Shown: piece by piece, positions 734-27,700 of the stretch
Position numbering within the stretch: position 1 is the stretch's first letter
How the letters are laid out: each line of letters begins with the position of its first letter
Assembly: GCA_004431415.1 (NCBI GenBank)
Contig: QPMI01000470.1
Coordinates: 124,001 to 188,000, forward strand
Origin: Cyanophora paradoxa CCMP329
Lineage: Eukaryota; Plantae; Glaucophyta
DNA: 64,000 nt
Reading direction: 5' to 3'
Notes under the pieces: generated by a model
Told to the model about the DNA's origin: nothing
Database searches by the model: none
The model's input: only the letters and a program-made list of their open reading frames with translations
Position numbers and translations under genes: made by a program

Positions 734-786
734 TATATTCTCTTTTATTATACTGCAACATAAAAAATCTACCAATGATCCTTAAT

Positions 787-1818: not shown

Positions 1819-1826
1819 ATATTAAA

Positions 1827-2759
1827 ATGAACCGGCTTGTTAATATTGATAGCAGGGATAGAAGCCAAGGACAAAATGAAAACTCTTACAGGGTCACCCT
1901 CACAACTCCAGTAGAGAGACCAAGAGAATGCAGGGTTCTTTATGCAGAGATTCCAAACAGTATCTATAACAGTGTGGGAACTGATCATATAACAGTTGAT
2001 TTTAACTACCAAGATGGTTCATACAATGAAATCATCACACAGAAAGTGTATCCCCTTCCCAGTGGCTACATTAACCAGGGTCATTTTGGGGTCACACATC
2101 CCTATAATTATGGGCTGAACTATTCAAGCTTCAAAACCATTGCAGATAAAACTGTGTTTTTTGAGTTCAAAATATTCTACAATCCAACTACCTATAAAGT
2201 GGAGTTTTACAGTAACCATGAGTTCCGTTTTATTGCAAGCAACAAGCGAATAGGGAAGCTTTTGGGTGTAAGTTCTACTGAATACACCACTGGGTATTAT
2301 AGCACTCCTCCTGTTGGTGGATCTCCATATCGACCTGAGAACCTTTTAAAGTATGATGGCAAACCTATTACACCTGATCACCCAGCATGGGGAATCACCT
2401 TCTCAGGACCCAGACTCTCCTCAAAGCCCTTGCAGTATTATTTCACCAGTAATAAGATGTCTGATATGAATGCTGAGCAGTATCTGTACATGCATATTAA
2501 AGAGCTTGCCCCCTTTGCAAGTAGACACAATATAATTCCGAAATCGCAACCACAAAACCAGGGAGCTATCCTTAGATTACAATTGAGTAAAGATATAGGT
2601 GGCTATGTTTACCATAGTGGTGAACATGCAGAATTTATTCAAATCAATGACAGAAACCTGGTGATAAGGGAACTCACTGTGGAGTTTAAAGATTACTTTG
2701 GTGAACTGATTGATATGAATGGAATCGATAATTCGTTTCAGTTGGAGTTTATCGAATAA
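1827..2759 (+). CDS. Minor capsid (penton-like) protein 2
   Basis: Motifs 'NIDSRDR', 'RVLYAEIPNS', 'YLYMHIKEL' and 'LTVEFKDYFGELIDMNGIDNSFQLEF' are typical of NCLDV-type penton proteins. Confidence 0.8.
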   Translation: MNRLVNIDSRDRSQGQNENSYRVTLTTPVERPRECRVLYAEIPNSIYNSVGTDHITVDFNYQDGSYNEIITQKVYPLPSGYINQGHFGVTHPYNYGLNYSSFKTIADKTVFFEFKIFYNPTTYKVEFYSNHEFRFIASNKRIGKLLGVSSTEYTTGYYSTPPVGGSPYRPENLLKYDGKPITPDHPAWGITFSGPRLSSKPLQYYFTSNKMSDMNAEQYLYMHIKELAPFASRHNIIPKSQPQNQGAILRLQLSKDIGGYVYHSGEHAEFIQINDRNLVIRELTVEFKDYFGELIDMNGIDNSFQLEFIE

Positions 2760-4304
2760 AGGCACCTGTGAAATCAACTCTCATTGTGGGAGCATTCACA
2801 TACACAAGGGGATAAATGCGAATATATTTGATTCTGAGAGAATAACCTATGTAAAAAGCATCCTTGATGCTGAGAGGAAATCCACTCAATAGAGCCACAT
2901 CACCAGAGTTGTGAGCATTGTTAATGTTCTCACAGACATATATTTTGTTTTGCCCATCTGATCGAATAAAAGACCAGTTGATCCCATCAGTGGATGTTGC
3001 CACATTGAAAGTCTTAATAAAAGCATTTGTTTCCCCTGATCCATAGGCAATCACAGATGAGAGTTCAAAAGTATATGGAAAAGCAACTTGAAGGTATTCA
3101 GTGGGAGTTTCCCATATTTGTTCAGGAGCATAGGCTCCAGCTTCCCAGCCAAATGCTGAAGGTCTTGCCATGAAAGGCTCTTTACCTGTCACAGAGGATG
3201 AGGCAGTAAAGGCATCATCTGCAAGCTGATACCAATTAGCATCTAAAGGAGGTGACTCTGTGAGAGTGGATGAGATGTAAGCCTTTGTAGGGTTCTTTAG
3301 TTCATAGTTTGCTACTAGAAGACTGCAAAGCTTATTAATCATATCATTGTTTGCTGCTATGTATGTTTCAGTGAATGCTAGCATATCTGGGATCTTAGAT
3401 GTGTCATCCAGAGAGCTTACAATGTGATTTGGAAGAGGGACTGATAGCCTATAGTATCTTCCATAATCCTGATCATAGTTGTAGGGTAACAACTCCTCCA
3501 TCTTATCAAGGGCAGAAAGCTCACTTGCAGCCATGAGCATGTTAATCAATGGGCTTCCATCTGTTGAGGCAATCCATGAGAGAATTCCCCAGCTGTTCAC
3601 AGTCTCATAAGCATAACCCACATAATCAGACTCTAAATGTGGGTCCACCTCACCACAAGAGATGCTTATTACTATAATATCATCATCATCACTGTAAATC
3701 TTCTTTGCATGGCTGTAACCACACACACTGGGATTATTGTTTCCCGAAATGGCACCATCAATGAGACAGACAAATACCCCCTGATTGAAATCAACAATGC
3801 TTACAGGAGAGAAATATGTAGGAGCAGCAGAAGTAGCCCTAGCAGCAATCTTACAAGGCAGAAAGCTGTAATTGTTATCATTTGTGATAAATATTGGTTT
3901 CATATTCTGAGTATCAAAGGATGTAATCACAATGTCCTTTAAGGAATCCTGTATTAGTGATTCACCAGTAACTGAATTGATTGCAGTTTCCAAGGGTCCC
4001 ACATCATATTTTGTATTAAAAAGGGCATTTTCGATGATATTTCGAGGATTTGCGAAAATCAAGGGCAGTTGAGTTAGGTAAATATTGTGTAAATCGTTTG
4101 CTGTCAGTTTAGGTTCACCTGGTTTATCAGGATGCCTTATATTCAAACCTATTGCAATGATCCCACCAGTGGAAGTTCCACTCACAAGATCCACAAGATC
4201 GATTATTCTCCTGCCAGTTCGATTTTCGATTTCTTTGAGCAGCCTGGTTATGATAATGCCCCTTGCACCTCCCCTGACAAACTGAGAACTACTTTGAGAG
4301 GCAT
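2749..4304 (-). CDS. Patatin-like phospholipase fused to a C-terminal F5/8 type C (discoidin) domain; apparent 1-nt frameshift near 4271-4274
   Basis: Patatin motifs GTSTG (GxSxG), ATSAAPTYF and IDGA are present. The C-terminus 'EYLQVAF...STDGINW...YIRIYP...MRVDFTG' is F5/8C-like. The likely ATG is at 4304 (MPLKVVLSLS); adding one G to the G4 run restores SGGGARGII in frame with the 481-aa ORF. Confidence 0.85.
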
Positions 4305-4345
4305 CTTTTACTTATCAGGAATTTTATAAATCCATATAGTAAAAG
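4305..4345. promoter_or_regulatory. Putative bidirectional viral promoter with two inverted AGTAAAAG boxes
   Basis: AGTAAAAG lies directly before the patatin ATG (minus strand) and 2 nt before the fibre ATG (plus strand, 4338-4345). The same octamer occurs at 9869-9876 before ORF 9882. Confidence 0.45.
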
Positions 4346-4347
4346 CC

Positions 4348-7185
4348 ATGAGCTTCAATTACCCACCCAATCTAGAAACCATTCAAGATGATAATGCAAG
4401 CAGCACCAAGCATGTGAACTTTGATAATATTAAAGTAAAGGGTTCAGTTTCGATTGACCACAGTTCCGATAATTCATCCAAGACTCAATCAAGGGAGCAT
4501 GCTTTATCTGTGAATCAAACCGATCCAGATAAGGAGGAAGTCAGTGTAGCTTTTAGCTTGGGTAATGTGAAAGCAAACCAAGTGGCAGAGATCAAAGCAA
4601 CAAGAAGGAGACCTAGGAAACTAAAAACCAGTGGCACTCATCCAGATATACCTTCCAGGTTTGACAGTGGTCGTTTGGTTTTCAATGTTCAAGATGAGCA
4701 GGGCAAACAGAACACAGGTTTGCGAATTTACAATGAGGGCAGCATTGCAAAAGCTGAGGTCCCCCAAGTATTGCAAGTGGGTCCCATTGCCAATACAAAT
4801 CAGGTCTCCTACACAAATGATGTCTACCCCAAGGATATTACATATGACTTTGCGAGGAATGAGCCTTTTGGGTTCTTTACTCCAAAAGATGTCCATCAAA
4901 AAAAGCCATCAATTACAATCAACAGTAGCCCCAGTCAACCAGTAGCAATCCATTTACATCCTGATCTTGTTGAAATGGATAGGCACCTTTTGCCTTTGTA
5001 TAGCAATGTGAAAGACCTTGGAATTCGAACCAGGCAATGGCGAAATATCCATGGCAGCAATGTGTATGCAAATGGTGAGAAGCTTGTAAGTGAGAAGACC
5101 ATAAGAGAGATCTTTGAGTATTATGGACCTGTCCCAGTTCCCTTCCCTCTTCCATGGGATCCACCGGATTTAACACCGAAAAAGCAGCCTGGAAGAGAAT
5201 ACACAGCAACTGAAGATGTAGCCTTTGGGCAGCATATTGTTAGTTGGGAGCAAGTTCGCAATAAACCTATAATTGAACCAAGAAAGCAAATAGATGAGCA
5301 GTATTTACCTCCTGAAGTCGACATATTAGAGCTTGATGAATATCAATTCGTTCCAGATGAGGAGGAGTATTTACCAGATGGTTTTGACCCACAAGAATAT
5401 GAATATGATCAGTTTGACCCCAATGAGGAGGAGATACTACCAGATGGCTTAGATCCACAAGAGTTTGAGTATGAGCAGAACTATGAACCTGATGAGGAGT
5501 ATTTGCCAGATGGTCATGATCCACCAGCTGTTGACTATGAGCAACCTTATGAACCCCATGAGGAACTATTACCAGATGGATTTCGACCTGAGATCTGGGA
5601 GTTCTTTCCTGATTATGAACAAATTAATAATAAACCTGCAAAGTATCCCCCAGAGGATCACAACCATGATTGGGATGAAATCTTAGGCAAACCAGAGAAA
5701 TTCCCACCAGAGGATCACAGGCATGACTGGGGTGATCTGGATGGGATACCAGATAAGTTTGCAGCAAGCAACCATGAACACACCTGGGATGAGATCAATG
5801 ACCAACCAGAATTCGCAAAAGTAGAGCCTCTTGCTACTCTGGGAGTTTCTCTTTACCAGACTTGCAATGTCCCTGAAAGGATCTTTTTGAATCACCACTA
5901 TGTTCATGTGGAAGGGACACTTGCAAATTCAGCTATGATAGGACCATTGCATATTAGAACATTACCAGGCTCTTATAATCCACCACCAGAACCAGGAGCA
6001 ACCATACCAAATATCTTTGTGTCAAGCTACATGGAGGTTGACATACCCATAGATACTTTTAGAGTTCCAACAGACCCAGCAACCTACCAAAATTACAATG
6101 CAGCTATACAGGTTCATGTTGCAGATGTGAGCAGTCTGGATGGATCAAGACCAATGATAGTTTTCAGTCGAGATAAATACTCCTACATTCCCATAGTGGG
6201 AACTGCAAATGATAATTATGGAAGGGCAGAACTTGCATGGATAAAAACGAATTATGGTGGGGTTCTGGAAGCTAATCAAAGAATGGCTGCAAAAAACATT
6301 CACAACGAAAATATATCGAGAGTGGTAACAGAAGATTATTTAGAAGATCAAGGATATATTGACGAAGGAGAACTAACGAATATTCTTTCTTTATTCGTGA
6401 TTAAAAATGATACAAACCTTACAGTCACAAGTAACATTTACACCAGTAACATTTCAGCAAGTAACATTTGGACAAGTAACCTATGGGCAAGTAATATATG
6501 GACAAGTAATATTTACGGAAGTAATTTAGAGGTTGACTACTTGACTGTGAATATTGAAGCAAACCTACCAAATCATCCTACTTCTAATGTTGTTTTGGAT
6601 TGGATTGATAACCACACACACACAAAAGATGAGATCACAGATTTTGCACATGATCATTTATGGGAGCATATAACAAATCCCCCCTCAACCTTCCCGCCCA
6701 GTTCACACACTCATGACTACTCAGAGATCACAAACTCTAATCACAGACACATTTGGAGTGAAATAGATGAACAGCCAGTATTCGCACAATTGAATGCAAT
6801 CGGAAACGTTTTTAATGGAGTCACACTTTACCAATCGATTAATACACCTGAAAGGCTATTTTTGAATGATCATTATGTTAGTCTCAATGGTTCATTTACA
6901 GGTCAAGAAGGCACACCGATGGTGGGAACTCTTGCAGTAAGATTACCCAGGGATCCAATTGTAAATGGAGTTTATGATGGCGATTTTAATGTAGGAGTAA
7001 ATGACACTTTCCCCAGTATCTATGTTACAAATTATCACCCAGGTGAAACAGGACAAGTAGCCGATTTTTCAGCAGCGATACAAGTAAATGTAACAGATCA
7101 AAGTGCATATGATGGAGCAAGACCTAAAATTGTGTTCACAAGGTGTTTGGTTGGAGTCGCCAGAGAGCAACCGATAATGATGTAG
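4348..7185 (+). CDS. Virion fibre protein, N-terminal part (acidic 22-aa repeats, H-x-H-x-W phage-tail-like repeats, duplicated ~135-aa domain)
   Basis: Five E-E-(Y/I/L)-L-P-D-G-like repeats; seven HxHx(W/K/Y)xxI/L repeats; TSNI repeats; two copies of 'GVxLYQ..N.PER.FLN.HYV...AAIQV.V.D.S..DG.RP.IVF.R'. Confidence 0.7.
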   Translation: MSFNYPPNLETIQDDNASSTKHVNFDNIKVKGSVSIDHSSDNSSKTQSREHALSVNQTDPDKEEVSVAFSLGNVKANQVAEIKATRRRPRKLKTSGTHPDIPSRFDSGRLVFNVQDEQGKQNTGLRIYNEGSIAKAEVPQVLQVGPIANTNQVSYTNDVYPKDITYDFARNEPFGFFTPKDVHQKKPSITINSSPSQPVAIHLHPDLVEMDRHLLPLYSNVKDLGIRTRQWRNIHGSNVYANGEKLVSEKTIREIFEYYGPVPVPFPLPWDPPDLTPKKQPGREYTATEDVAFGQHIVSWEQVRNKPIIEPRKQIDEQYLPPEVDILELDEYQFVPDEEEYLPDGFDPQEYEYDQFDPNEEEILPDGLDPQEFEYEQNYEPDEEYLPDGHDPPAVDYEQPYEPHEELLPDGFRPEIWEFFPDYEQINNKPAKYPPEDHNHDWDEILGKPEKFPPEDHRHDWGDLDGIPDKFAASNHEHTWDEINDQPEFAKVEPLATLGVSLYQTCNVPERIFLNHHYVHVEGTLANSAMIGPLHIRTLPGSYNPPPEPGATIPNIFVSSYMEVDIPIDTFRVPTDPATYQNYNAAIQVHVADVSSLDGSRPMIVFSRDKYSYIPIVGTANDNYGRAELAWIKTNYGGVLEANQRMAAKNIHNENISRVVTEDYLEDQGYIDEGELTNILSLFVIKNDTNLTVTSNIYTSNISASNIWTSNLWASNIWTSNIYGSNLEVDYLTVNIEANLPNHPTSNVVLDWIDNHTHTKDEITDFAHDHLWEHITNPPSTFPPSSHTHDYSEITNSNHRHIWSEIDEQPVFAQLNAIGNVFNGVTLYQSINTPERLFLNDHYVSLNGSFTGQEGTPMVGTLAVRLPRDPIVNGVYDGDFNVGVNDTFPSIYVTNYHPGETGQVADFSAAIQVNVTDQSAYDGARPKIVFTRCLVGVAREQPIMM

Positions 7186-9530
7186 GATTAATTCATTATG
7201 ATAATATCGCTTTTAATCCTGTCGGCAAATATTCCGATTTTGATGTGGTGAGTGGTTGGAATAGCACAGGTGTAGCATTCCCAGCCGGAGGTTGGACAAC
7301 AGGATGGAAACCCACAACAGATAACCCAGTGGAAGGTTTTTATAGCAACCAGACAGATGATGAAAGTGGTAGTGGGTATATGCAATGTCAAGTGCCGGCA
7401 GGAATGAAAACATGTCACATACAATACTTATGTTGGACGAATGGGCGATATTTTGATATTAACGGATACCGAAATGGTCGATGGAATTATATTATGAGAG
7501 TGAATACGTATCAAAATGTTCAAAACACAGCCGACACAGCTTGGCATTCGAGTTTATTATGGACATCCGTATTTTGTGGGAGTTGTTCATATATTGGAAT
7601 TTTCGCAAAAAAAGGACGAATTCATATCGGAATGCTTGGATGGACAAAAGAAGTAGGTAGAACAGCGCCAGCTAATGGTTTGATAAGTTGGGATAACGTA
7701 TATAGCAAACCATCATTTTACTCAGCCGCAGACCTTCCACAAACAGCAACATGGGCTGTCTCCACTTGGTTAAAATCAACGGATAATGTCCCACGATTTT
7801 GGTTTGGAAATGGTGGAACTACATATATTCGAGGTTATGAGCATAGTGATGGTGTATCTGTCGAATTCAGAAACTCAGCAGATGCATGGCTATTAAGATC
7901 GTATTCAAATGGTAACCTTGCAGTTAACAATACTTTGACAGTTCCGACCATAAGTGCAACAACCATAGATGTTGCAACATTAAAAAGAAATGGTTATGAA
8001 ATTCCAAAATTCTACGCTTTTGATGACACAGTAGCAGGTGGTGCTTATCATTCAACAAATGGTAATTGGATAATTGGTAATGGGTGGCAATGGGATCCAG
8101 GATATAATTACGGAAGTTATGCCCTCAACAATGAATACGATGATCAAGTAACAACTACATCTTGGATTCAATACACAATTCCCACAGCATTGGTTAATGG
8201 GACAGCATTTCTCACTCATTTACCATGGAATACTTCCCGTTACTTTGAGATTTGGGGAGTCCGTAGTAATGGAAACATAGTATTTATTACAAGAGTAAAC
8301 AATTATCAACCACATAACAGCTATCCAGATAATTACCACGACGGAGTTAATAATGTCCCAATCTTCCTTGCCGGTCGATTTACTCACCTCCGTATTTATC
8401 CGAGAGTCGGAAGAGTTCATATTATGGGAATAGGTTTTACGCATGATCGAGCTAATAGTAGTTCATATGGTGGTCACACAGGGTTTATTTCTTGGGATAA
8501 CATTTATAGTAAGCCAAATCTACTAACTCCGAGTTTAGTGGGAAACATTACAGGTTTTGATACTTGGAGTGGGACGGGTAGTGGCGGTTTATCGTTTAGC
8601 GGGTCTTGGGGAACAGGTTGGACGGCTTCTGTTTCTAATCCTGTGGATGGATTTTATAGCACTATTGAAGGTGATACAACCAGCTCTGATTGGGCGCAAA
8701 TTGAAGTTCCCGCAAATATGCAAACATGTCACGTTCAATATTTGTGTTGGACGAATTGTAGATATTTCGATATTGGAGGTTATCGATCAGGTAGATGGTT
8801 CCACATTATGCGAGTTAATACTTACCAGGCTATCTCAAATTATGCATCCACAGATTATCACGATGGATTGGCGTGGGCTTCTTTTGCTTGTGATTATTTC
8901 ACACATGTAAGATTTGTTGCAAGGAAAGGGCGATGTTATATTGGAATGGTTGGATGGACGAAAGAAAAAGGGAGAACCTCACCAGCAAATGGTATGATCA
9001 GTTGGGATAATGTTTATAGTAAACCACTCACTACCACATGGACAGAAGACAATTGGATTGCCCCAATAGGAAGTTCACTCAGTCGTTTTTATTTTGGTTC
9101 AGCGGGAACAACTTACATAAGAGGTCATGCAGCAACAGTTGTAGAATTTAGAAATGCATCAGACACAAACATAGCATATATTGAACAGAGTGGATACATG
9201 TATATTGCGGCGTATTTGACACAAGGAAGCGATAGAAGATACAAAACCGATATTAAAAAGATAACCGGCGCTCTTTCAGCAATTGAGAAATTAGAAGGAG
9301 TAAGTTTTAAACGAATTGGAAGCGAAAAAGATGGAACGAAATTAGGTTTAATTGCGCAAGATGTAGAAAAGGTAATACCAGAGGTTGTTAATAAAAAATA
9401 TGATAATGGCTACCTATCTCTCGAATATACGGGTTTGGTTCCAGTTCTCATAGAAGCTGTTAAAGAATTATCTAAGAAATGCAAAGATCTGCAAAGTCAA
9501 ATAGACCAAATTAAAAATGTCACAGTATAA
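7143..9530 (+). CDS. Virion fibre protein, C-terminal part, with three ~150-aa repeat modules and a peptidase S74 intramolecular chaperone domain
   Basis: The C-terminus 'SDRRYKTDI...GLIAQDVEKVIPEVV...LEYTGLVPVLIEAVKEL' plus coiled coil is the S74 chaperone signature. Three modules each end in 'G.ISWDN.YSKP'. There is no ATG at the frame start, so this is probably the same gene as 4348-7185. Confidence 0.85.
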   Translation: MFGWSRQRATDNDVGLIHYDNIAFNPVGKYSDFDVVSGWNSTGVAFPAGGWTTGWKPTTDNPVEGFYSNQTDDESGSGYMQCQVPAGMKTCHIQYLCWTNGRYFDINGYRNGRWNYIMRVNTYQNVQNTADTAWHSSLLWTSVFCGSCSYIGIFAKKGRIHIGMLGWTKEVGRTAPANGLISWDNVYSKPSFYSAADLPQTATWAVSTWLKSTDNVPRFWFGNGGTTYIRGYEHSDGVSVEFRNSADAWLLRSYSNGNLAVNNTLTVPTISATTIDVATLKRNGYEIPKFYAFDDTVAGGAYHSTNGNWIIGNGWQWDPGYNYGSYALNNEYDDQVTTTSWIQYTIPTALVNGTAFLTHLPWNTSRYFEIWGVRSNGNIVFITRVNNYQPHNSYPDNYHDGVNNVPIFLAGRFTHLRIYPRVGRVHIMGIGFTHDRANSSSYGGHTGFISWDNIYSKPNLLTPSLVGNITGFDTWSGTGSGGLSFSGSWGTGWTASVSNPVDGFYSTIEGDTTSSDWAQIEVPANMQTCHVQYLCWTNCRYFDIGGYRSGRWFHIMRVNTYQAISNYASTDYHDGLAWASFACDYFTHVRFVARKGRCYIGMVGWTKEKGRTSPANGMISWDNVYSKPLTTTWTEDNWIAPIGSSLSRFYFGSAGTTYIRGHAATVVEFRNASDTNIAYIEQSGYMYIAAYLTQGSDRRYKTDIKKITGALSAIEKLEGVSFKRIGSEKDGTKLGLIAQDVEKVIPEVVNKKYDNGYLSLEYTGLVPVLIEAVKELSKKCKDLQSQIDQIKNVTV

Positions 9531-9533
9531 TAA

Positions 9534-9842
9534 ATGGCGACCTATCCACTCGGTGGAACTCCTTCTACTTCTTCTGAGCCTGTCGCTCTTGCTTTTGATA
9601 CTATCAAACTTGTAGCCGCACTACAAACTGTCGAAAAAACGATACAACAAACTAACAAACTGTCACCGGTTGTTCATGAATATAAAAACCTCTTGGTTAA
9701 TGTACTTGCGCAATCGGCTTATGGTGACCCAGTAACAAAATATGGTGAATGTGATTCTAACCTCAAAGCGATGACATCCAACATCCAATGTCTAACAACC
9801 GCTTACCAATCTCTTGGATCCAATCTAATTGCTTTGGCTTGA
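9534..9842 (+). CDS. Hypothetical viral protein (102 aa, likely helical)
   Basis: Clean ATG ORF 3 nt after the fibre stop, in TAAATG context; no recognisable motif. Confidence 0.6.
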   Translation: MATYPLGGTPSTSSEPVALAFDTIKLVAALQTVEKTIQQTNKLSPVVHEYKNLLVNVLAQSAYGDPVTKYGECDSNLKAMTSNIQCLTTAYQSLGSNLIALA

Positions 9843-9881
9843 ATGGTGTTTATTTTTCTTTCCTTCTAAGTAAAAGAAGCA

Positions 9882-10736
9882 ATGGGTGAATATAATCGAG
9901 TCCAACTTCCCATATATTCCCTTGGATCCCCAGCAATGCACTTTCGCCAGCATGAAGTGAATGATGAAGTTCGTGGTTTAGAATCCACAGAGAGACCCAA
10001 TTCCAATGGTAACTCCTTTGATAAAAATTCGATTATTCGAGTTAAAGAACTGAGAGCTGATAAGAATTCTGGTGTAGTCAAAACCACTCGACTCCTTGTC
10101 TCAAATGCGAATTTCTTCCAACCTACTAATGGAGGTCCTGATGCTTACAGTGTTGATCTGAAAGCCCTCGATTTCGATAAGAATTCTGCTGCTGTTACTG
10201 TGAGATCAGGAGGAGCATTTATTGGTGGTGGTTGTCGTGTTTCAGGACAACTCTCTTCATCAGTTTCGTATAATGATGTCCCAGATACTCTTGAACAAAA
10301 TGTAGAGAATCCCCAACGAATACGTTTCTATACACCAGTTGCACAGCAACCTTTTCTACATTTCTATGTTGCTTCCTCTGTCACTCTTGAAAATTCGGAA
10401 TTGGTTATTATAACAGGAACTGATCGAGTAAGAAGAAATATTCCGCTTCCCACAGCAATGCTATCTATGTGCAGAGCAAACAACAATCAAACAGGTCATA
10501 ATTACCTATTCTTTGTTCAAGCATCAAACCATTTCGGTCGAGGATATTGTGTTTATAACAATTTGACATTTACCTATGATTTGTTTGTAACTGAGGTTGG
10601 AGTTTACAATACTATGATTATGGGACTGAGGACAGATATAGCAGCTGTTTCGGCACTTCGAGGGGTAAATGTTGCTGATATATTCACAACAGGATTTTAC
10701 ATGGAACCAGATGTGATTGATGACCCAACCCCATAA
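9882..10736 (+). CDS. Putative fibre/spike-like protein, paralog A
   Basis: Clean ORF. Shares 'V.GL.STE...ELR.DKN.G.VKTT.LLV.NANF...SGGA.IG.G.RV.G' with the next ORF. The Gly-rich motif resembles viral fibre shaft repeats. Confidence 0.6.
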   Translation: MGEYNRVQLPIYSLGSPAMHFRQHEVNDEVRGLESTERPNSNGNSFDKNSIIRVKELRADKNSGVVKTTRLLVSNANFFQPTNGGPDAYSVDLKALDFDKNSAAVTVRSGGAFIGGGCRVSGQLSSSVSYNDVPDTLEQNVENPQRIRFYTPVAQQPFLHFYVASSVTLENSELVIITGTDRVRRNIPLPTAMLSMCRANNNQTGHNYLFFVQASNHFGRGYCVYNNLTFTYDLFVTEVGVYNTMIMGLRTDIAAVSALRGVNVADIFTTGFYMEPDVIDDPTP

Positions 10737-10759
10737 AAGATATATCCCTTTAATGTAAA

Positions 10760-11593
10760 ATGGCTGAGCAACCCCCACTTGAACGAATAATTACACCTCA
10801 GCTTTCATTAGCAGCACCTGCAAATCACGTTTTGCAGCATGCTACCTTTGATGATGTAGAAGGTCTCCAATCGACAGAAGTACAACCTACCATGAATACA
10901 TTCGGTTCCACCCATAAACTGAGATTGCAGGAACTCAGGTGTGATAAAAATAATGGTATAGTTAAGACAACGAAACTCCTTGTCACAAATGCAAACTTTT
11001 CTGCTCATTATGGAGACCCAGATAGCTATGGAGATCCTCTGTCTACTTATTCTTTTGAATCTAGGTCGGGAGCTATTAACTGCAAATCGGGGGGAGCTTA
11101 TATTGGTGATGGTCTTAGGGTTGGTGGGGCTGTTGGAGCGCCTCTATTTGTGAATGATCAACCCAATCCCATTGATCCCAACACAAGAATTCGAACCTAT
11201 GTCCCCAGCATGAATGCCCCATACATTATAAAGATATTCCCAATTGTTGTGAATGAACAAACAGCAGTAGTAGACTCTCTTGTTGAAATTGGTGACCACT
11301 ACAAGGTAGTTGTGGATATCCCACCAGATGTTTATGCTGTATGCCAAGTTGAAGGTGGAACTCCCAACTTTGCAGTTGTGATCACCCCATATGACAATTT
11401 CGGAATTGCTTATCATGGAGTCAATTTCGGTTTGGAAGACTATCAGTTTCTTGTGAGAGCCACCAAGTTTGGTATCTACAAGTGTGTGATGTTTGCAGAG
11501 AGAACCGATTTTATTGCAAAGCAGAATACCTATGCTGAATACTATGGGACAAATCGATATTTCCCCATTTTCGGGCAGGATACTGCTCCATAA
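10760..11593 (+). CDS. Putative fibre/spike-like protein, paralog B
   Basis: Tandem paralog of 9882-10736. The C-terminus 'VDIP...VVITP...F.V......VMFAERTD' resembles C-terminal domains of phage tail proteins. Confidence 0.6.
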   Translation: MAEQPPLERIITPQLSLAAPANHVLQHATFDDVEGLQSTEVQPTMNTFGSTHKLRLQELRCDKNNGIVKTTKLLVTNANFSAHYGDPDSYGDPLSTYSFESRSGAINCKSGGAYIGDGLRVGGAVGAPLFVNDQPNPIDPNTRIRTYVPSMNAPYIIKIFPIVVNEQTAVVDSLVEIGDHYKVVVDIPPDVYAVCQVEGGTPNFAVVITPYDNFGIAYHGVNFGLEDYQFLVRATKFGIYKCVMFAERTDFIAKQNTYAEYYGTNRYFPIFGQDTAP

Positions 11594-11615
11594 GAATATT
11601 GGTTATATATAGAGT

Positions 11616-11888
11616 ATGGATAGTAAAACAAAAAAGTTTATTGATGCTGCTATGACAGTCCATGGTAAAGATAAATTCGATTACAGTGAGACACATTACA
11701 TCAAAGCTCAAGAGAAAGTATCTGTTAGATGTTTGCAGTGTAACAAAGTGATCCTTACCTATCCCTTTAATCATGTGAAGGGATCAGGGTGTAGGGAATG
11801 CAACAAAAAGCACTCTCAGGCTTACAGGAAAAGGGCTACTTCATCAATAACAGTGGAATATAGGGATGTTTGCATTAGGTTCGATTAG
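11616..11888 (+). CDS. DUF723-like (homing-endonuclease-associated) Zn-ribbon protein, no nuclease domain
   Basis: 'FIDAAMTVHGKDKFDYSETHYIKAQEKVSVRCLQC...PFNHVKGSGCREC' fits the FI..A..VHG.KYDYS...Y.....KV.I.C...P..H..G.GC..C repeat of phage and giant-virus endonucleases. Confidence 0.7.
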   Translation: MDSKTKKFIDAAMTVHGKDKFDYSETHYIKAQEKVSVRCLQCNKVILTYPFNHVKGSGCRECNKKHSQAYRKRATSSITVEYRDVCIRFD

Positions 11889-11917
11889 GTTTAATTAATT
11901 TTTCTAAGGTATTCTTA

Positions 11918-12316
11918 ATGGAGACTCAATACAGAGGCTTTCATGTTATGCTTGATTACAAGGCTAAATCAGCTATTGCAACAGGAAATGAGCATGTGAG
12001 CTTCCTAGGTAATTGGATTATGGGAACCCTTGAACAAGCAGTATTAAGACAAGGTATTAGGATTGTTCATAAACACTGTGAAATATTTGATGGCAAAGTA
12101 TCACCTCCTGGTTTTGCATTGGTTCTGCTATTAGATGAAAGCCATTGCACAGCTCATTGTTATTCCAATGAAGGCATGTTAGCAATTGATATATTCAGTT
12201 GTGGTAAAGAAGCTCAGCATAAAACACAAGCAGTTGCAGATGAGATCGATAAAACAATGAATTTCCTCACATTTGAGAAGACTGAGAGACATAAACATGA
12301 TAGATTCCCGTTTTGA
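11918..12316 (+). CDS. speD: S-adenosylmethionine decarboxylase proenzyme (short bacterial-type, pyruvoyl-dependent)
   Basis: 'GFHVMLD...PPGFALVLLLDESHCTAHCYSNEGMLAIDIFSCG' contains the ESH autocleavage motif and D.F.CG motif; 132 aa. Confidence 0.88.
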   Translation: METQYRGFHVMLDYKAKSAIATGNEHVSFLGNWIMGTLEQAVLRQGIRIVHKHCEIFDGKVSPPGFALVLLLDESHCTAHCYSNEGMLAIDIFSCGKEAQHKTQAVADEIDKTMNFLTFEKTERHKHDRFPF

Positions 12317-12788
12317 TGAGTTTCTATAATGAGTTTTGAAAGGATTCCTTTGTTTTATAACAATAACATTGATCAGCTATTATTACAACAGGATATAATA
12401 TATCCTTTACCTACAATAGCTTTTTACAATGATTATTTTCCGGATTCCGGTCATTCTTTACGATAGAAATTCTACTGTATGATGTAGCCGAAATATGAAT
12501 GCACCCTACATTAAGCAATGTCAAACTCAGCATCTCCCCTAGATTCCCCCTATTATATAATATTTATATTAAAGTGGACTCAAGGTTGACTCATATTAAT
12601 CGTAAAAGTAGTAATAGTATATGGAATTTGTTACGAATTCAATGCAAGGGTTGACTAAGTGGGTTGAGTTGACTCAAATTTCACAGGAAATAACAATGAA
12701 TCAGAGTTTAAAATGCATTTTTTGAATCAACTACACCAACTAACACTGAGATTTTCACAAAATATGAGGTCCTTACTGAATATGGTAT

Positions 12789-12881
12789 GTGTCACAGGTG
12801 TCACAGGTCTATCCCAAAGTTTTCTATAGCATAAAAATGAACTCTCAAAAGTTTGGGATGGACCTGTGACACCTGTGACAC
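12789..12881. repeat. Palindromic unit 1 with tandem 9-bp iterons
   Basis: GTGTCACAGGTGTCACAGGTC (12789-12809) and its exact reverse complement (12861-12881); the arms extend inward to about 35 bp with 2 mismatches. Confidence 0.9.
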
Positions 12882-12988
12882 TCGATTATTTCATTTGTTT
12901 ATTCAAGTAGAATTACATAGATAAAATTCTTACTTATTGTTACTGAGTTTTTCAATATAAAAGAGGCTCTTACCATAAATGGTGTTGT

Positions 12989-13088
12989 TCACAGGTGTCA
13001 CAGGTCTATCCCAAAGTTTTCATATATATAAAAATCAACTCTCAAAAGTTTGGGATTGACCTGTGACACCTGTGACACCTGTGACACC
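12989..13088. repeat. Palindromic unit 2 (direct copy of unit 1, with three ACCTGTGAC units on the right arm)
   Basis: TCACAGGTGTCACAGGTCTATCCCAAAGTTTT...AAAAGTTTGGGATTGACCTGTGACACCTGTGACACCTGTGACAC. Confidence 0.9.
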
Positions 13089-13328
13089 CAAATTCCTAAG
13101 GGTCCCCCCTTAGACTTATAAAAACATGATAAAAACATATCAATTTCATGTATAATTACGATTGAATTCAATAAGAGATCGATTTGTTTTATTTAACAAA
13201 TGAATCTTTTATGGATCTTAATCGAGTTTAGCGATATGTTTCCGATTAAATGAATTAAATTTAATTACATTTAATCGAGAAAGTACATGAATATAATATC
13301 GATTAAATCAATTAACTTTTAGACCAAT

Positions 13329-13614
13329 CACACATAGTAAAATGCGGAGTTTTAACCAGAGGCAAGATCTAATTGAGATTCAGTTATATTATTCGGAAAT
13401 ATACACAGATTATCGATTAACTCAGTAAGACTAATCGGAAAATAAGAGAAATTTACGATAAAATATCGAAAAGAATACAAAATAATCGAAATAAATGAAT
13501 ATTCGATAAGATATACACAGATTATCGATTGATTGAAATAGAATATACGAGATATATCAACAAAATCAATTAAGATTAAGCCGAGGGTTAAAACTCCGCA
13601 TTTTACTATGTGTG
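13329..13614. repeat. Terminal 29-bp perfect inverted repeat around an AT-rich, imperfectly self-complementary 228-bp spacer
   Basis: CACACATAGTAAAATGCGGAGTTTTAACC (13329-13357) pairs with GGTTAAAACTCCGCATTTTACTATGTGTG (13586-13614). An internal 20-bp direct repeat lies at 13399-13418 and 13511-13530. Confidence 0.93.
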
Positions 13615-16600
13615 CCCGGCGCCCGATCCTCGCGCTCGCGACCAGTCGCGTCAGTCCGGCGCCGACCGTCCTGCTTCGCAGGAAGCCTCGTCATCCTCCG
13701 CCAAGCTCAAGGCGCCGGCGTGCTTCCGGGTGGTCTCGCCCCGCGCTCGTGCTTCCGCATTCGGAACGGATGCCGAGACGGTACCGGCCTCTGGATCTGG
13801 TGGCGGGCGACAGAATCCCACCGGAAAGGATGCGGACGCGGAATCCGCCGATCGCGACGATGCGATCGCGAACGCGAGCGGTGCCCTCTCGCGGGAGGAG
13901 GCGGCGGGCCGGCTGGCGGCTGCCGCCGCGTCGGGCGAGAGCCTCGTGTACGGGCGGCGCGAGGCGAAGGCGCAGCTCGTGGAGCTGCTCGCGGCCGCCC
14001 GCTGCGGCGAGTACCTTCAGGGCGGCGCCGCGAGCGGGCACACGCTCCTGGTCGAGGGCGGACGGGGCTCGGGGAAGAGCACGTTCGGTGAGCGGGCGCC
14101 CGATCGCGAGTTTGAATTTCCTGAATTTCGAGCATCGCCCACCGCAGTGGCGGAGGCGGAGCGGCTGTGCGAGGTCATCGACCTCCCGTTCCTGAGCCTG
14201 CAGCCCGACCCCAAGGAGGTACTCTCGCTGTCAATGTCCCTTGCAGCCGACGCCGGCGCTGACGTCGACGTCATTGTCGGTTTCATTCCGCTTATACGAA
14301 CTTCTATTTGATTTTAATATTTAATTCACAAAGATTCTTATAAGACTTTTTCATTATTGGTATATGACCTAAGGATGGCAGATGCACCCGTACGAGGCCG
14401 TGCGGCTGCTGCTGCGGGGGCTCATGCTGCCCGAGGGCGGAGCCGGCTGCACTCGAGCGCCACCGAGCTCGAGGCGGCTGCGGTGAACGCCGGCGCCGGC
14501 GCGGGCCACTCGCGCACGCAAAGCGTCTCCGAGATCGCTGCGGAAGCCATGGCCAACGCCGACCGACGACGACGGGCGTCGACGTCGGCGGGAATTTCCA
14601 TGGAAGCATGGCTCCAGTCCGCGGGGAGGCGTCGGTCCCGCCCTCGCCGCAGGGTTCGAATTCCGCTGTCGCCGGCCCCGGCGGCGCCGGCGGCGCCGGC
14701 CCCGGCCTTGGCAGCCCGCGGGCTTCGACCGGCTCGGAAACGCGCGCAGTGCGGATCCTCGGACGCAGTCCGAGCTCGGTGGGGAGCCCCAAGAGTCAGG
14801 GCCAGCAGCGCGGCACCGGCAGCCCCCGTACCTCGACGGAAATTCGGCTGTTTCCAGGGCGCAGCGCTAGCCCGGGCCGGGGTAGCCCGCGGCACGGGCT
14901 CGAGGCCCGCGGGGGCTTCTTCTTGAGCTCTTTGTCTCCAGCTGCCATGGCCGGCCGCGGCCTGCCCGGCGGCGATCGCGACCTGCGGCCCGTCGAGTTT
15001 GACACGGAGGACCAGTTGGGCGATTTCGAGCGCGAATGCGGCCCTTCCTCGCAATCCGACGGCAGGGGCATCGAATCGTGGCTGGAGCCGCCCTCGTGCC
15101 GCTCGGCGTCGGCGGAGTCGCCCGCAGGCAGCTCGCCCCGGCCGGCCGCGGGCCAGCCCAGAGCCGCCGCGGGCCCGGGCCCCGCCTCTCGTCCTTCGGC
15201 GACGGCAAGCTATTTATAGACGCCCTCGAGTTTCTGAAGCGCGTGGACATGCCCCTCGCCACCGGACGAAACGCTCAGGCCCGCGAAAGTTTACTTGCGA
15301 AATCCGCAATCGCCTTCGTTTTTGCGCTAATTAATTTCGCAGGTGATCGTTCGGCTCCTGCGCGACGGCATTTTCTTCCCTTCCACAACGTCTGCGGAGG
15401 GCTCGAGCTCGCACTTCCCCCCTGGCCCCGGCTCGAATGCTTCCTCGTCGGCCGCCCGGCGCCGCCGCTCCCTAGCCGCCTACAGCGGCACCGGCGTACC
15501 CTCCCCGGCCGGCAGCGAGAGGCGCGCCTTGGGCGACGCTCGCGCCGCCACCGCTGCGGGCCTCGTCGACTTCCAAATGGCCGACTCCTCGGAGGGGCAC
15601 CGCGTTTTCTCGTTCCTCTGCCGCCTTCTCGAGGTGCTCACCTGAGCCTTGATCTTGAGCCCGCGCCCGCCGGTGCCTTGGAGTGAGCGGGGTGGTGCGC
15701 AGGGGTTGGCGCGGAGCTCCGGAGCGCTCGTCATCGTGGACGGTTAGCCCTGCGCTACGCGCGACGTCGATCGCGACGCCCTGCGCCCGGCACTTTAAAA
15801 TTTGGCTCATCCGGAGCCCTCCCTCGCGGTCGGCCGCAGATTTCTGCGACCTCGACGCCGCCTCGCAGAAGTGCCTCGCCTTCGTCGCCCAGACCGGGTC
15901 CGTTGCCGCGAGCTCGAAGCTTTCATTTCCTTCGAGGCAGCCTTCGCTGAGCGCGGGCAGGCGGGTGTGCGTGCTGGCGACGTCGCGGAAGGTTCCGGCG
16001 AGCACCGTCTCCGTCGAGTTCAACATGCTGCGGCAGAGCCGCCAGACGCGCCGCGTCGAGCTCGCCCCCTGGTCCTCCCTCGGTGAGACTGAGCGGTTTC
16101 GAACCGCCTCCAGCTCCGCGCAGATTCCAACCTTTCCGACCCGGTCCGACCCGGCCCGACCCGCCCGCGCCGCAGACGACGTGGCGGGCTTCGTGAGCTT
16201 CGTGCTGCGGATCGAGAAGGAGAACCTCTCGCCCGTGCTGGCCAGGGCCCTCGCGGAGCGCACGGGCGGGGCGCCGCGCCCGCTCCGCGAGCTCGTCCTT
16301 TTCCTCGTCAAGACGGGCTTCATCGAGCTCGACAACGGCCGGGCACTCGCCTCGGCCGCCCTGCTGAGAACCGCCGCAACGGGCACGGACGCGGAACCGA
16401 ATTCAAGTCGGCCTTCCTCGAGGAGTCACGATCAAACGCGACGCCACTCCGCCATCGTCTTCGAATTTCCATCGATTTCCACGCCGTCATCTCTGTCGTC
16501 GATGTCGGCCGCGGCCGACGGGCCCGGATCCGGATCCGGAAGCGCTATCGCTAGCTACAGCGGCGCCGCCGGCATCGGAGCGCTGATCCTTCCGCTGGCG

Positions 16601-19600
16601 CCGCTGCCACCAGCGCTGAAGCCCGCCTCGGTCTCGTTCGGAGTGGGGTCGATCTTCCCTTCAAATTCAAAGGAGGCCGCGGCCACGGCGCACGCTCAGG
16701 GCGCCGGCGCCGGCGCCAGGCGCCGCTCGAGCCTGCGCGCGCTCTCGATCTCGGACAATGGCGCCGGTGCTGTCGCCAGCGACCTGTCCGGGCTCTCCAT
16801 TGACTTGAGGGCCTTGCCCCTGCCCGACAGGTGCTTCAAGATACCGAAAGCTTAAGTTCTCTAGAACTCCCCACATTAGATTCGACCCTGAAGCTTGAGC
16901 TAAGCTAATCTAAGCTAAACTAAGCTAAACTAAACTAAGCTAAGCTAAGCTAAGCTAAACTGAAGCTAAGCTAAGCTAAGCTAAACTAAGCTAACTTAGT
17001 AGAAGCTAAGCTAAGCTAAACTAAGCTAAACTAAGCTAAGCTAAGCTAAACTAAGCTAATCTAAGCTTAAGCTAAGCTATGCTTAAGCTGAGCGAGCCCC
17101 GCCGGCAGCCTCCTGCCGGCGTCGATCCTCTCCGAGCTGGACCGGATCCCGACCGTCGCCGCCGACGCCCTCAAGCTCGCCTCCGTCCTCGTCCGTCGAC
17201 GTTGACGCGCCCCCTTCCGATCCGTTGACGATGTGGCACTGATCCAAGGCGGCATGCGCATGCGCAGGGGCCGCGCTTCGAGTCCGGCCTCGCGCAGTAC
17301 GCCCTAAACGGCGCCGTCGACTGGGGCACCATCGCCGACTGCCTCAAGGTACTCCCTTCCAGTTTTAGTTATTTGGTATGCTGATTTACATAACAAAACA
17401 GGTGCTGGAACGGCACGGGGTGCTGGCCTGCGTGCAGATGCCCGATGGACTCTTTGAATACGGTGCGAAACTTGAAACATCGGAGCTCGAGCCGCAGAAT
17501 CGGTTAACAAAACTCGATGCTGACCGTTTTCGCACAACAGTGTTCACTGAGCCAGCCCATGGTTCGCGACTTGCCATCATGCTATCGATTATAATTAGCA
17601 GGCCTAGGCTCCAGCACGTGCAATCATCTCTTTGCGATGGCTGACACCGCGCGCCATGACCCCCAGCCCTTATGTCTAATACACACGCATCTATAACACA
17701 CGCATATTATTGTATTACTTGCTCCGGCCCTTATTTCGCTTCGCTTTTCGCAGTGGAGGTGCTGCGGAAGACGGCGGGCCCCTCCGAGGCGGCCCTCGTC
17801 GCGTGGCGAGCGGCCGAGTACCTCTGCCGCACCTCTGAGCACCGCGGCAAGGCCGATGCCGCGCAGGTCCGCGAGATAATATAGATATCGATCTAGTCCG
17901 GGCTGGCCATGGCCTCTATGGAATTAGCTAAGTGCTGAGCAGGTCGCGGGGTACTACGCCGCGGCGGGGGCTGCTTCGTTCGCGGAGCCGTACTGGGAGA
18001 TTGCGGCTGAGGCGGCGATCGAGTCCGGCCGCCCCGCCGAGGCCCTCGCGACGCTCCCCGCGGAGCGTGCTCCGCCCGCGGCCGCCGTGTCATTGCGGTC
18101 CCGTGGCGGAAAGTTCTTGGCGCAAAGCGCGGCGGGCGCGGCGGGCGCGGCGGGCGCGGCGGGCGCGGGGGCGCGGGGGCGGCGAGGCGCTGTGCGGGGC
18201 GCGGCGTCTCGAGCTCCGATCGCGCGCCCTCTTTGCCCTCGGACGCCTGGACGAAGCCCTCGAGGCGTGTACCCACCCACCCACCCACCCGTCCCAGCCC
18301 TTCCATCGCCAGCCTCCTGACGCCCCACGCCAGGCCGTCCAGGCGTGCTTTTTGCAGCTGGGGGTCAAACTGCAGGGCAGGCGGCCCCTTGCACTCCCCG
18401 TCCTCCTTGCCGCCCTCTCCTCCTCCCGGCCTCCGGCGCCCGACCCCAGATTGTGCGTCATTCCTGCGCAGTGTTACGCCAGACCTGATGTTTTGCGGGC
18501 TGGGCAGGGGCGCGCTCAACGCGGGCGCGCGGCGCATTCCCAACTCTCTGCAGGCGGCGCTGCAGCGGGCGACGGAGGCGCCGCCCGAGCAGCGCCGCGC
18601 TGACATCCTCGTCGCCGCTCTGGGTAACTTAGTAATTACAGATTCGAATAAAACAAGCTGCGGCCGATCCTAATCTTCGGTTTGCAGGAACCTACGTGTC
18701 CATCCTCGCCCACTGCGGCGACGCCGCCTCTGCCGCCGAGTCTGGTCTGCCCGCTCTGTTTCCGCCGCTTTCCGTCGAGTGAGTGAGCGGCCGGGCAGCG
18801 CTGGCGATGGTGCGGCTGGCGCGGCGGTGGAGCCCCGACGCGGTCCGCGCGGACGCCCTCGCCACCGCCGCCTCCGCCTTCTCCGTGCGCCCCGCGCGTC
18901 GACTCCTGTCCCTGAGCCTACGCCCTGTTATCTTTGTCGCCGACGGGGCGGGGCGGCAGCGGGCGCGGTTCGGGCGGCGGGCGACGGAGGCGCTCCTCGC
19001 GGGGGCGTCCCGCGCGGCAGCCGCCCTGCCCGCCGGCGAGCTCCCGGGGCCCCTTTCCGTGGCGCAGGTCCCCGCGCTCTCCCGCCCTGTTCTGAACCGT
19101 TCTTAAAGCTCTAGCTTCGCGCTGTAAATTTACTTCGCGCTCAGGTGACGTCGGCGGCGCTGGGCGGCGCGTTCGGCGCGGTCGACGCCTCCGCGCGGTC
19201 CCTCGCATCGCGGGTGCGCCCGATCTAAGCTCGCCGCGCTCGCTCACTTCTGACCGCCTTCTCTTCTTTCTCACGATCGCTTTCGAGCAGCTGCGGGCGG
19301 TGGGCAAGGACTCCGACGCGGGCGAGGTGGCGCTGGCGCACGCGCTGTCGCACCTCCTCCGGGGCCAGACCGGCCCCGCCCGCGCCCTCTACACGTCCCT
19401 CGTGTGCTCGACCCGCCCCCAGGCTTAAACCCCTCCAACCGCACGTTGCGAGCTCACCGGCCCTTCCATGTGCGCAGGAAGCGCACTCCGTCGCATCCCA
19501 ACACCCCCTACACCTGTCCGCACCCTTCGGATTCGATCGCGCGCAATCCCGTGCGGCTGACTGTGCGGCCGGCAGCTTCTGGGCGCGCCTCGGCCGCGCG

Positions 19601-24700: not shown

Positions 24701-27700
24701 TCTGAGCCGCCTGATCCCTCCGCGCCATCTGAGCCGCCTGAGCCGCCGCCTGAGCCGGGCGGGCGGGCAGAACCTGAGCTTCGGGGGCCCCGGGAGCTCG
24801 CCCTCCATGAACGCCATCGCAAAGAGGTTCTTGAAGCTTAACGCACTTCTTGCAATTGAAGCTTATATACATTAAATTCCTTAAAGCTTAAGCAAAGACC
24901 CTTCGCTGAAATCGGCGAAGCTCGTTTTCAAACTGATCAGCTAAGTAAGCCAAGCTAGTTAAGCTAAGCTCAGCTAAGTTAAGCTCAATTAACTTAGCCC
25001 TCATCACTGAAGCTAATTATATAAGCTTCCTGAATTCGAACTTAGCCCTTAATGAACGGAGCCGCGCCAAGAGGTCCCGGCCCCCGCCCGCCTGAAATTC
25101 GTGAAGCTCATTCAATTATATATAAATCGGATAGCTTCACTGAGCGCAGTGAAGCTCATTTAGAATTGATCGAATAGCTAAGATGCCCTTAGCTCAAATT
25201 TCGAACAGTGAAATTAACTGGTGAAGCTCATTTATATAATTAAGATTAGCGAACTCGAAGCTCATGATCAGATGCCCCAAGCCCGAGGGCCGAGGGATGA
25301 CCCCCGGGCCGGGGCGGGGCCGCGCAGCCTGTACGAGGCGGGGGTGCCGGTGGTGGTCGCCGCCATGAACGACGGCGTCGACGCCTGCTCCTACACCCCC
25401 GCCAACAGGCCCGCCCGGCGCCCGCCGCTCAATCGGAACGAATATATATAAAGGAGGAGGATCGATCTAAAGGTTTGAATAATATTACTAAACCCGGACC
25501 TCGCCTCGGCTCTAGCCGGCGCCTCGGTCCCTGGGCCTCGCCGGTCCCGTCGACGTCTGATTCGCATTAAACTTTGTTCGGGGGACATGTACAGCCCCTA
25601 CGCGGTGGCGGTGGGGGCGACGGAGATCCGGGGGGGCAGGTCCGCCCCAGCCCCGCCCCGCCCTGACCCTGCCCTGAAAGCTTCTAGATATCTCACCCGC
25701 CCCGCTTCTATATAAGCTTCTAAATCTCAATCAAAGGGCCTTCTGCCCCGTCCCCGGCCCGCCCCGCCCTCCCTTATATAATTACGCGGCCTCGAAGCGT
25801 AAAATTTAAAGTGGCTTTAAAGCGTATAGGTCCGCGCCAGCGCCATCCCCGCCCTGTACACGGGCTCCTCGCTGCCTTCTATATATGTATAAGATTAAAG
25901 CTTGCTTCTCACCCGAGACCGCGGCCCTCTCACTCACCTGCGGCAGGGACGCGCTGGCGCCCTACTCGAACCGCGGGCCCTGCCTCTCCCTCCTCGCCCC
26001 GGGCACCTCCAGTGCGTCCATGACCACGACCAGCGATCGCGGCTCCTTAATTTATTTGAAACTTCGAGCTATTGTAACTGATAGGAGCGCAGTCACGTCA
26101 GCGTTCCACCGGTCGCCCGGGAGCCGCGAGGTCATGACCGGCACCAGCATGGCGCGCCCCGCCCCGCCCCCTTAAGAAGCGTAATCTTTAAGAAGCTTCA
26201 CATCGAAGCTCATAATCAAGAAATGTTTAAAAGGCTTTTAAGAAGAGTTAGAGTTTTTGAAGCTTATGATCAAGAAGTGCTTAGAAGCTACCACGCGTAC
26301 GCTCGGCCGAGCCCCCGCCCCGCCCCGCCCCGCGAAAGCGCATTCCTGTGTTGCTCTGAGCGGAGCGCGGCGCGCGCAGGCGGCCCCGCACGTCACCGGC
26401 GCGGCGGGTGCGCGAGCCCCAAGCGCCCGTTACCGGCGTTTTTCGCGCCGCGAAATTCGAAGCGTCGAATTTCGCAGCGGTGCTGATGGGGGCGCCCCAC
26501 TTCCGCTCGGGCCCGGGCGCCATCGCCGCGCTCCTCAGCCAGGTCCGCCCTAGGCAGGGGGGCCTTGAATAATTAATTAGGCGCCAGAACCTCATGATCA
26601 TAATCAATTGCAATGCCTTCTAAGACACTCTAATTATAAGACGGGCGCCATCGCCGCGCTCCTCATGATCGGCCATCGGCCAGCTCCGCTCTTGGCAGGG
26701 GTGCATGCCTTGGCCAGCTGCAGGCTGAGGGGTGCCTTGTGCGCCAGCTGCAGAATATTGATATCTATCGCTATTCGCTTATCCAAATCTTCTTTATCCA
26801 CGCCTTCAGCTATTATGAACTGATATTTATTTAGATTTGGCCAGGCTCCTTTAGGTTAGGCCGTGCCTTGCGTTTCGTTTCTGAGCGCGCACAATCGCAG
26901 GCCACGCCGTTGGAGGGGGCGGGGGGCACCCTCCGCGCCGCCGCCTCCGCCTCCGCCGCCTCCGCCTCCGCCGCCTCCGCCGCCTCCGCCGCCGCCTCTG
27001 TCGTCCACGGCTCCGGTTCCGCTTCGAGTTCGAAGGTGGGACCATAGGAGAATATTGATATCTATCCCTTTTCGCTTATCCAAATCTTCTTTATCCACGC
27101 CTTCTTTATCTTAGGTGGGACCAGAGGAGATCCCGTCGGCCCCCGTCCTCTACGCGGGGGCCGTCGACTCCCCTCCCCCCTCTCCGCTCCTCTCCTCGAG
27201 CCCCGGCGCGGCGCCAGCGCCGGCGGCGGGCCCGGGCTCGTATCCGGAAGGGTGCGCGTGCCCCGCTAGCCGGGATGCCCCCGGGGTTATCCGAAGCTTT
27301 GATTTACATGCTATAGCTTTATACGAAGCTTTCAAAAGGAGCTCTAGGACTTTCAAGGAGCTTGAGCTTTCATATGCATGCACTTAAGCTTTTTCAGGCG
27401 CTGCCCCGCTGCTTGCCCGGTTGGCCTCGTCTGCGCGTACGGGCGCTGCCGGCGGGCGGCCCCCGAGGAGCCGGCCGGCCCCCTGCCCCTCGACCTTGAC
27501 AACGGCACCGGTACGCTGCATTAACATTACTGATAAGGACCGAGGCGCTCTAAGAAAATAAAAGCTCTGTAAGAATCTTCCCAGTCACTACAAGAAGCCC
27601 TAGAAGAAGCTTCAAGTTAGGCGCTCCTCACATTCGGCTTTGCAGCGCTCGCGTTCCGGTCCCTCCGCGGGAGGGCGGCCCCGCCTCCGCCTCGGAAGCC

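Follow-up and report, generated by a model that had tools for sequence, protein, structure and literature searches.

An AT-rich fold-back of 286 bases with perfect 29-bp arms at the host junction of a multi-copy endogenous virus in Cyanophora paradoxa

Mriyavirus-like viruses have been reported inside algal genomes despite being described as devoid of integration genes, and Mriyaviricetes-related regions were reported in a glaucophyte assembly (10.1101/2025.04.19.649669). According to their description, all mriyaviruses encode an HUH endonuclease with its best match in ORF119 of the rudivirus SIRV1, and several mriyavirus contigs possess direct terminal repeats, which the authors read as a sign of circular or terminally redundant genomes (PMC11253617). 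In rudiviruses, the hairpin ends are reported to be nicked near the tip by an HUH Rep protein that stays bound to the 5′-end (PMC5062984). Related small nucleocytovirus-like groups often possess rve integrases or tyrosine recombinases. The virus family described here is already known from its capsid gene, as Bellas et al. (2023) listed 366 hits to the major capsid protein (MCP) for Cyanophora paradoxa, the protein P0001 among them (PMC10120064, tables S1, S2 and S4). Besides P0001, table S2 of that study contains an MCP of 465 aa whose start closely matches by eye that of the MCP analysed here; the words “Cyanophora” and “hairpin” do not occur in the main text, and neither the ends nor the integration route are described in the supplementary rows examined (PMC10120064). 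The word “hairpin” is also absent from the main texts checked on mriyaviruses, related groups and rve integration, and no account of the ends of these C. paradoxa viruses was found in a literature search that was not worded around palindromes.

The window, i.e. the whole stretch of C. paradoxa DNA that was analysed, comprises 64,000 nucleotides. Its positions 1–13614 are densely coding with a GC content of 34–43%, which climbs to 68% past 13614, and they are an endogenous virus with a nucleocytovirus-type capsid. In a first-pass annotation of the window it was proposed that this element ends in an opened, incompletely base-paired hairpin telomere. The 286 bases concerned (13329–13614) form a real fold-back, and this is the conserved terminus of an endogenous virus with many copies. 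The annotated features are the following.

1–733, minus strand: 5′ part of the MCP gene, double jelly-roll of nucleocytovirus type (identity to P0001; ESM Atlas and Foldseek applied to P0001).
787–2759 (787–1818 minus strand, 1827–2759 plus strand): two ORFs, likely minor capsid proteins (weak DUF5901 match in the ORF at 1827–2759).
2749–4311, minus strand: patatin-like phospholipase fused to an F5/8 type C domain (profile searches; no in-frame ATG at the 5′ end).
4348–11593, plus strand: fibre-like proteins, of which one has an S74 chaperone at its C-terminus, plus a paralogous pair of ORFs of unknown family (profile searches).
11616–12316, plus strand: small ORF with an endonuclease-associated zinc finger and the gene for S-adenosylmethionine decarboxylase; beyond these two genes the end is non-coding.
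12789–12881, no strand: subterminal hairpin, a 35-bp inverted repeat with 94% complementarity (repeat search and folding).
12986–13087, no strand: second copy of the 12789–12881 hairpin, within a 197-bp tandem duplication (repeat search; depth dip).
13208–13315, no strand: a second AT-rich, imperfect hairpin in subterminal position, with CG cores like those of the spacer (mirror-centre and folding analysis).
13329–13357, plus strand: left arm of the 29-bp perfect inverted repeat (inverted-repeat search and folding).
13358–13585, plus strand: AT-rich, purine-skewed 228-bp spacer with patchy pairing in the outer ~34 nt, CG-centred cores and a degenerate 112-bp direct repeat.
13586–13614, minus strand: right arm, terminating at the virus/host junction (inverted repeat and short-read contigs).
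13612–13614, plus strand: GTG found both at the end of the element and in the empty host site, either as an overlap or as one of the copies of a duplicated triplet, and predicted 5′ splice donor of the host gene (contigs in 4 of 4 runs; reading frame).
13615–14200, plus strand: GC-rich host DNA with a predicted intron to 13681, followed by an open frame with a P-loop motif (composition and reading frame).

The first 244 residues of the MCP are encoded in the window. They are 60% identical to P0001, which is labelled Cyanophora paradoxa at its source, and the nearest named relative of the window MCP is a Cyanophora paradoxa protein. P0001 was placed in ESM Atlas clusters at 0.97–0.98, in which 12–18% of the members bear Capsid_N/Capsid_NCLDV, and a Foldseek search with its model (pLDDT 54.5) yielded a best E value of 6e-18 and named matches that were mostly nucleocytovirus MCPs. 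Judged by language-model features and modelled fold, P0001 resembles the double jelly-roll capsids of nucleocytoviruses; an MCP of this type is a feature of the Mriyaviricetes, which is present here via P0001 and does not single out mriyaviruses. No PHROG was obtained for the capsid, and sequence comparison gave no match to a solved structure. VLTF2, VLTF3 and Mriya_48 were not found in the visible 13.6 kb of the element, no HUH endonuclease, integrase, recombinase or resolvase was recognised among the ORFs of this part, and protein-seeded locus searches in three collections returned no confirmed relative.

The ORFs at 787–1818 and 1827–2759 are those that we take to encode minor capsid proteins; in a profile search with the latter, DUF5901 was matched with an E value of 0.009, below the cut-off. 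The patatin-discoidin ORF at 2749–4311 on the minus strand has no ATG, possibly owing to a frameshift in the assembly. An ORF of 284 aa gave no ESM Atlas lead, its best value being 0.80. The presence of a viral S-adenosylmethionine decarboxylase gene (11918–12316, Pfam E value of 3e-11) in a small virus was also recorded. Furthermore, CG dinucleotides are depleted throughout the viral part, with 1 found and about 41 expected in 3001–4000, while the terminal region retains regularly spaced CGs.

The 29-bp inverted repeat had been described as perfect in the first-pass annotation, and this was borne out: the arms at 13329–13357 and 13586–13614 match without exception and flank a 228-bp spacer of 26% GC, and the first 16 nt of the left arm have just two matches within the 64-kb window. 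Folding of 13329–13614, which had been suggested there as a check, resulted in −53.6 kcal/mol with a z score of −11, a value equalled by 0 of 200 shuffles, and this folding excess stems mostly from the arms. The spacer alone, when aligned with its own reverse complement, scored better than 999 of 1000 dinucleotide shuffles. Its plus strand folded better than 298 of 300 shuffles and folding of the minus strand was weaker, with 33 of 300 shuffles as good. The patchy complementarity that had been noted inside the arms stands for the outer 34 nt on each side, which pair as short blocks beyond chance (8 of 3000 shuffles as good), and does not stand for the deeper 78 nt. There, 52 of 3000 plain shuffles were as good, and as this number rose to 1639 of 3000 when the CG-centred cores were held fixed, these cores fully account for the deep complementarity; the deep interior of the spacer is not a selected rod. 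The palindromic cores are arranged in steps of 17–22 nt (about 21) across most of the spacer and extend, less regularly, upstream of the left arm.

Of 117 alignment columns, 64 are paired, and the mismatches, which had been called purine-rich, are mainly purine-purine (29 of 43). Rival mirror centres are almost equal to the arm axis, with 41% for the latter and 40% and 39% elsewhere. The motif CGATA-AAA-TATCG, which had been placed near the centre, is indeed present at 13456–13468; its own centre is located 9.5 nt to the left of the arm axis (13471.5), and it folds as a side hairpin. An AT-rich, incompletely paired fold-back is accordingly present in silico at the end of the element, and its significance is confined to the arms and the next 34 nt. 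No target-site duplication surrounds the 286-mer, the flanks of which are unrelated. The exact 29-mer arm was absent from the viral, prokaryote-genome and metagenome collections searched, and Rfam returned sub-threshold miRNA-like matches only, none of them inside 13329–13614.

Three further hairpins and the same CG cores precede the left arm, so that this region can fold at many places. At 12745–13087 a 197-bp tandem duplication was observed, each copy of which contains a 32–35-bp inverted repeat of GTGTCACAG units. Its second unit is carried by few of the read-supported copies, as seen from a depth dip at 12918–13065.

Public short-read data were used for the analysis of the junction. In 4 of 4 runs a host contig has its first base precisely at 13612, where a second, host-like contig meets it from the left, again in 4 of 4 runs; therefore an uninterrupted locus exists, either as an allele or as a near-identical paralogue. 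The claim that the last base of the repeat is the virus/host junction is supported both by the jump in GC content and by the short-read contigs, with the qualification that the GTG common to the element and the empty site leaves the exact viral end ambiguous by 3 nt. In the empty site, known from one locus, GAG precedes the shared GTG, so that a mismatch to the element occurs at the fourth base. The chance of sharing these three bases is ~0.02, as calculated from the host composition, and the GTG may be the core of an overlap, one of two copies of a duplicated triplet, or a preferred target. The junction is known from contig breaks and depth, no displayed piece spanning it, and the depth over 13623–13648 is greater than that of the host contig alone.

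Together with the empty-site contig, 13612–13681 can be read as an exon end, a GT..AG intron of 70 nt and a next exon in phase. As predicted from sequence, the insertion of the virus appears to have hit the splice donor of a host gene that has a P-loop motif. In 4 of 4 runs, the agreement of two other junction contigs with the host flank continues for nine bases beyond the GTG (to 13623), in a view that is biased to such matches; a longer target preference may be indicated by this nine-base agreement. Elsewhere in the window, a satellite of AAGCT/AAACT 5-mers was found in host DNA at 16888–17096 and 24947–25001. A long stretch of lower GC content (50–65%) covers 28000–42000, and two near-identical 54-bp copies at 27996 and 33761 could be the long terminal repeats of a retroelement.

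Of 24 listed public runs, 14 contained half or more of the sequence words from 10000–15000, and six of these were analysed, all as short-read contigs; contig depth does not give a copy number, and depth ratios are rough. Immediately before the left arm, the viral DNA reached 24, 24, 31 and 40 times the depth of the host contig past the junction in four runs, and the cultured alga contains roughly tens of copies of the virus family. In run X5, the least fragmented one, a zero-mismatch contig extends from the upstream viral DNA through the left arm at a depth of 3361, and the spacer contig has a depth of 3411; hence, the hairpin travels with the virus. In each run, 52 to 58 contigs are compatible with both arms, which would be expected for an arm with many different flanks behind it. 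Beyond the right arm, other GC-rich flanks depart as loose ends at 13616, 13617 and 13623 among the rows listed (24 of 39). As these other junctions were selected for their resemblance to this site, a GTG at the end of every copy cannot be deduced from them.

No joint changing strand was seen among the contigs, which are built from 31-letter words that cannot resolve a 29-bp arm, so that flip and flop forms would not show. The main spacer contig of run X5 begins at 13329 and a variant contig one base earlier, at 13328; this implies another neighbour on the upstream side and gives a weak hint, from this one run, of a flipped or solo copy or, equally, of an error tip. In the same run, a minor variant accounts for ~15% of the hairpin depth (571 of 3982) and has no separate upstream contig. 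The minor subfamily (about 15% to one sixth of the depth) is distinguished by five substitutions in the right arm (13590, 13595, 13600, 13604 and 13605), and its likely left contig shows 14 differences, 10 of them within 30 bases of the contig ends, where positions go unlisted. The pairing partners of seven listed spacer variants gave a mixed picture. A higher conservation of the hairpin than of the upstream DNA was considered and dropped, as 7 listed sites in 286 bp and at least 27 in 651 bp had been obtained with differing cut-offs. Additionally, a low-depth contig (31–63) of 978–989 nt covering 13514–13576 matches the element from 13514 only and has GC-rich DNA to its left in run X8; it is apparently a remnant with only the right ~100 bases of the viral end.

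Our tentative explanation is that the 286 bases represent an opened hairpin genome tip that was nicked at the base of its stem and joined at a host GTG, a reading to which we assign slightly less than an even chance. For this we infer a linear, hairpin-ended free form, a nick, an enzyme and a choice of target by GTG. On a free linear genome, the 228-nt spacer would serve as a terminal loop with incomplete pairing, and the arms would each correspond to one strand of the final 29 bp of the duplex, which would explain their perfect match as well as their abrupt stop. A nick placed 29 bp inside the duplex would open the tip. The stem base would be cut for replication by a viral nicking enzyme, most plausibly an HUH endonuclease as in mriyaviruses and rudiviruses, and this enzyme would sometimes join the cut end to host DNA via three matching bases. 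In favour of an opened tip are the perfect and abruptly ending arms with pairing in the next 34 nt, the equal depth of hairpin and upstream viral DNA, the GC-rich flanks found elsewhere, the GTG common to the empty site, the nucleocytovirus-type capsid, the mriyavirus-related regions reported in a glaucophyte assembly and the HUH endonuclease of mriyaviruses with its rudivirus match. Against it stand the lack of an HUH, recombinase or resolvase gene in the visible 13.6 kb, the fact that membership in the mriyaviruses is an assumption, the mriyavirus contigs read as circular or terminally redundant, the frequent rve integrases and tyrosine recombinases of related groups, and the deep spacer, which shows no pairing beyond the palindromic cores and whose 64 paired columns of 117 are few for a telomere rod. 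From the poxvirus-like opened hairpin telomere of the first-pass annotation, the end of an endogenous virus with an abrupt, perfect stem was thus retained, and the imperfect rod was upheld for the first ~34 nt only. A wider version, in which an integrase-free small relative of giant viruses has a linear hairpin-ended genome whose tip is joined at a host GTG by the replication nickase, possibly with a preference for splice donors, we consider doubtful; if it were true, one HUH enzyme would be both origin nickase and integrase.

A target overlap of 3 nt fits a folded attachment site, the second option offered in the first-pass annotation, equally well as an opened tip. Such a single-strand site would be carried by a circular intermediate, and a tyrosine recombinase or HUH enzyme would exchange one strand at the stem base via the GTG, which would leave the hairpin at one end of the element. 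Several observations would suit this account, namely the identity of three bases between end and empty site exactly at the foot of the stem, the better folding of the plus strand in comparison to the minus strand, and the contig in which only the right ~100 nt are joined to host DNA, as in an end-anchored single-strand transfer. For attC, CTX and IS200/605 it is established that the substrate is a folded single strand (PMC3458562), mriyavirus contigs can be circular (PMC11253617), and tyrosine recombinases occur in VC134 viruses. We nevertheless regard it as rather improbable, for 286 nt is twice the length of the longest natural attC (57–141 bp), a flawless 29-bp stem is unnecessary for sites of this kind, and no recombinase was seen in the window. 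The three additional hairpins with the same CG cores upstream, which offer many folding places, as well as the ~21-nt spacing and the 112-bp direct repeat, which suit a binding array in duplex DNA, would agree with conventional insertion through a DDE integrase of the rve type, the most frequent one in two related groups. The hairpins and CG cores would then be a replication origin or protein-binding array in a terminal inverted repeat, and the GTG would be a short duplication or a coincidence. This is in our view unlikely, as it would leave unexplained why the junction base is the last of the stem. Retroviral integrase substrates typically end in a 3′ CA, from which the 3′ end of the 286-mer differs. 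Moreover, rve integrases are reported to leave duplications of 5–6 bp (PMC12220804), whereas the left-side overlap amounts to 3 nt here.

The opened tip was also weighed against two readings in which the 286-mer would not be a viral end. Owing to its CAC..GTG ends it could be taken for an independent miniature transposon (MITE) located at the end of the virus, and the variant with ~15% of the X5 hairpin depth, having no separate upstream contig, would be in line with this. The first-pass annotation had set a free-standing unit with its own target-site duplications against its own proposal; in the main family, no duplication flanks the 286-mer, the depth is equal inside and upstream (3411 and 3361 in X5), and a zero-mismatch contig leads from viral DNA through the left arm. 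As the hairpin depth equals that of the upstream viral DNA, the unit is not a free MITE, and the empty site is devoid of the entire viral side, not merely of the 286-mer; we judge this reading very unlikely. The assembly does have errors, as evident from sites at which the window differs from every contig (e.g. 13404, 12708 and 12761) and from a gene without an in-frame start. That the junction itself is an artefact, i.e. a fold-back or chimeric join, is scarcely credible to us, because both arms and the spacer are covered by independent short-read contigs, the host contig breaks at 13612 in 4 of 4 runs, for which a further upstream neighbour in addition to the empty allele is needed, and the depth over 13623–13648 is above that of the host contig alone.

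The virus family is present in tens of copies in an alga kept in culture, its end is defined, and filled and empty forms exist for one locus or more. The Mriyaviricetes and the groups Zora/VC102, VC134 and VC218 are like the window element in that a nucleocytovirus-type double jelly-roll capsid is found in a small endogenous virus. Mriyaviricetes possess HUH, VLTF2/3 and Mriya_48, measure 35–45 kb and have no PolB, whereas the window element is known from 13.6 kb that do not contain those hallmark genes. The flip/flop telomeres described for poxviruses are AT-rich, incompletely paired terminal hairpins, as is the fold-back studied here (PMC8956199). However, the hairpins of poxviruses and rudiviruses are ends of free genomes, whereas the opened tip that we favour lies at a chromosome junction and its interior is far less paired. 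The recombination sites attC and CTX phage attP and the ends of IS200/IS605 have a short overlap with their target, and a crossover of the attC/CTX type at the stem base with such an overlap has its counterpart in the GTG at one site here. In these systems, an imperfect stem adjoins the crossover, as in the present locus (PMC3458562); they are bacterial and attC comprises 57–141 bp (PMC3458562), whereas the structure of the virus has a length of 286 bp and no matching enzyme in the visible ORFs.
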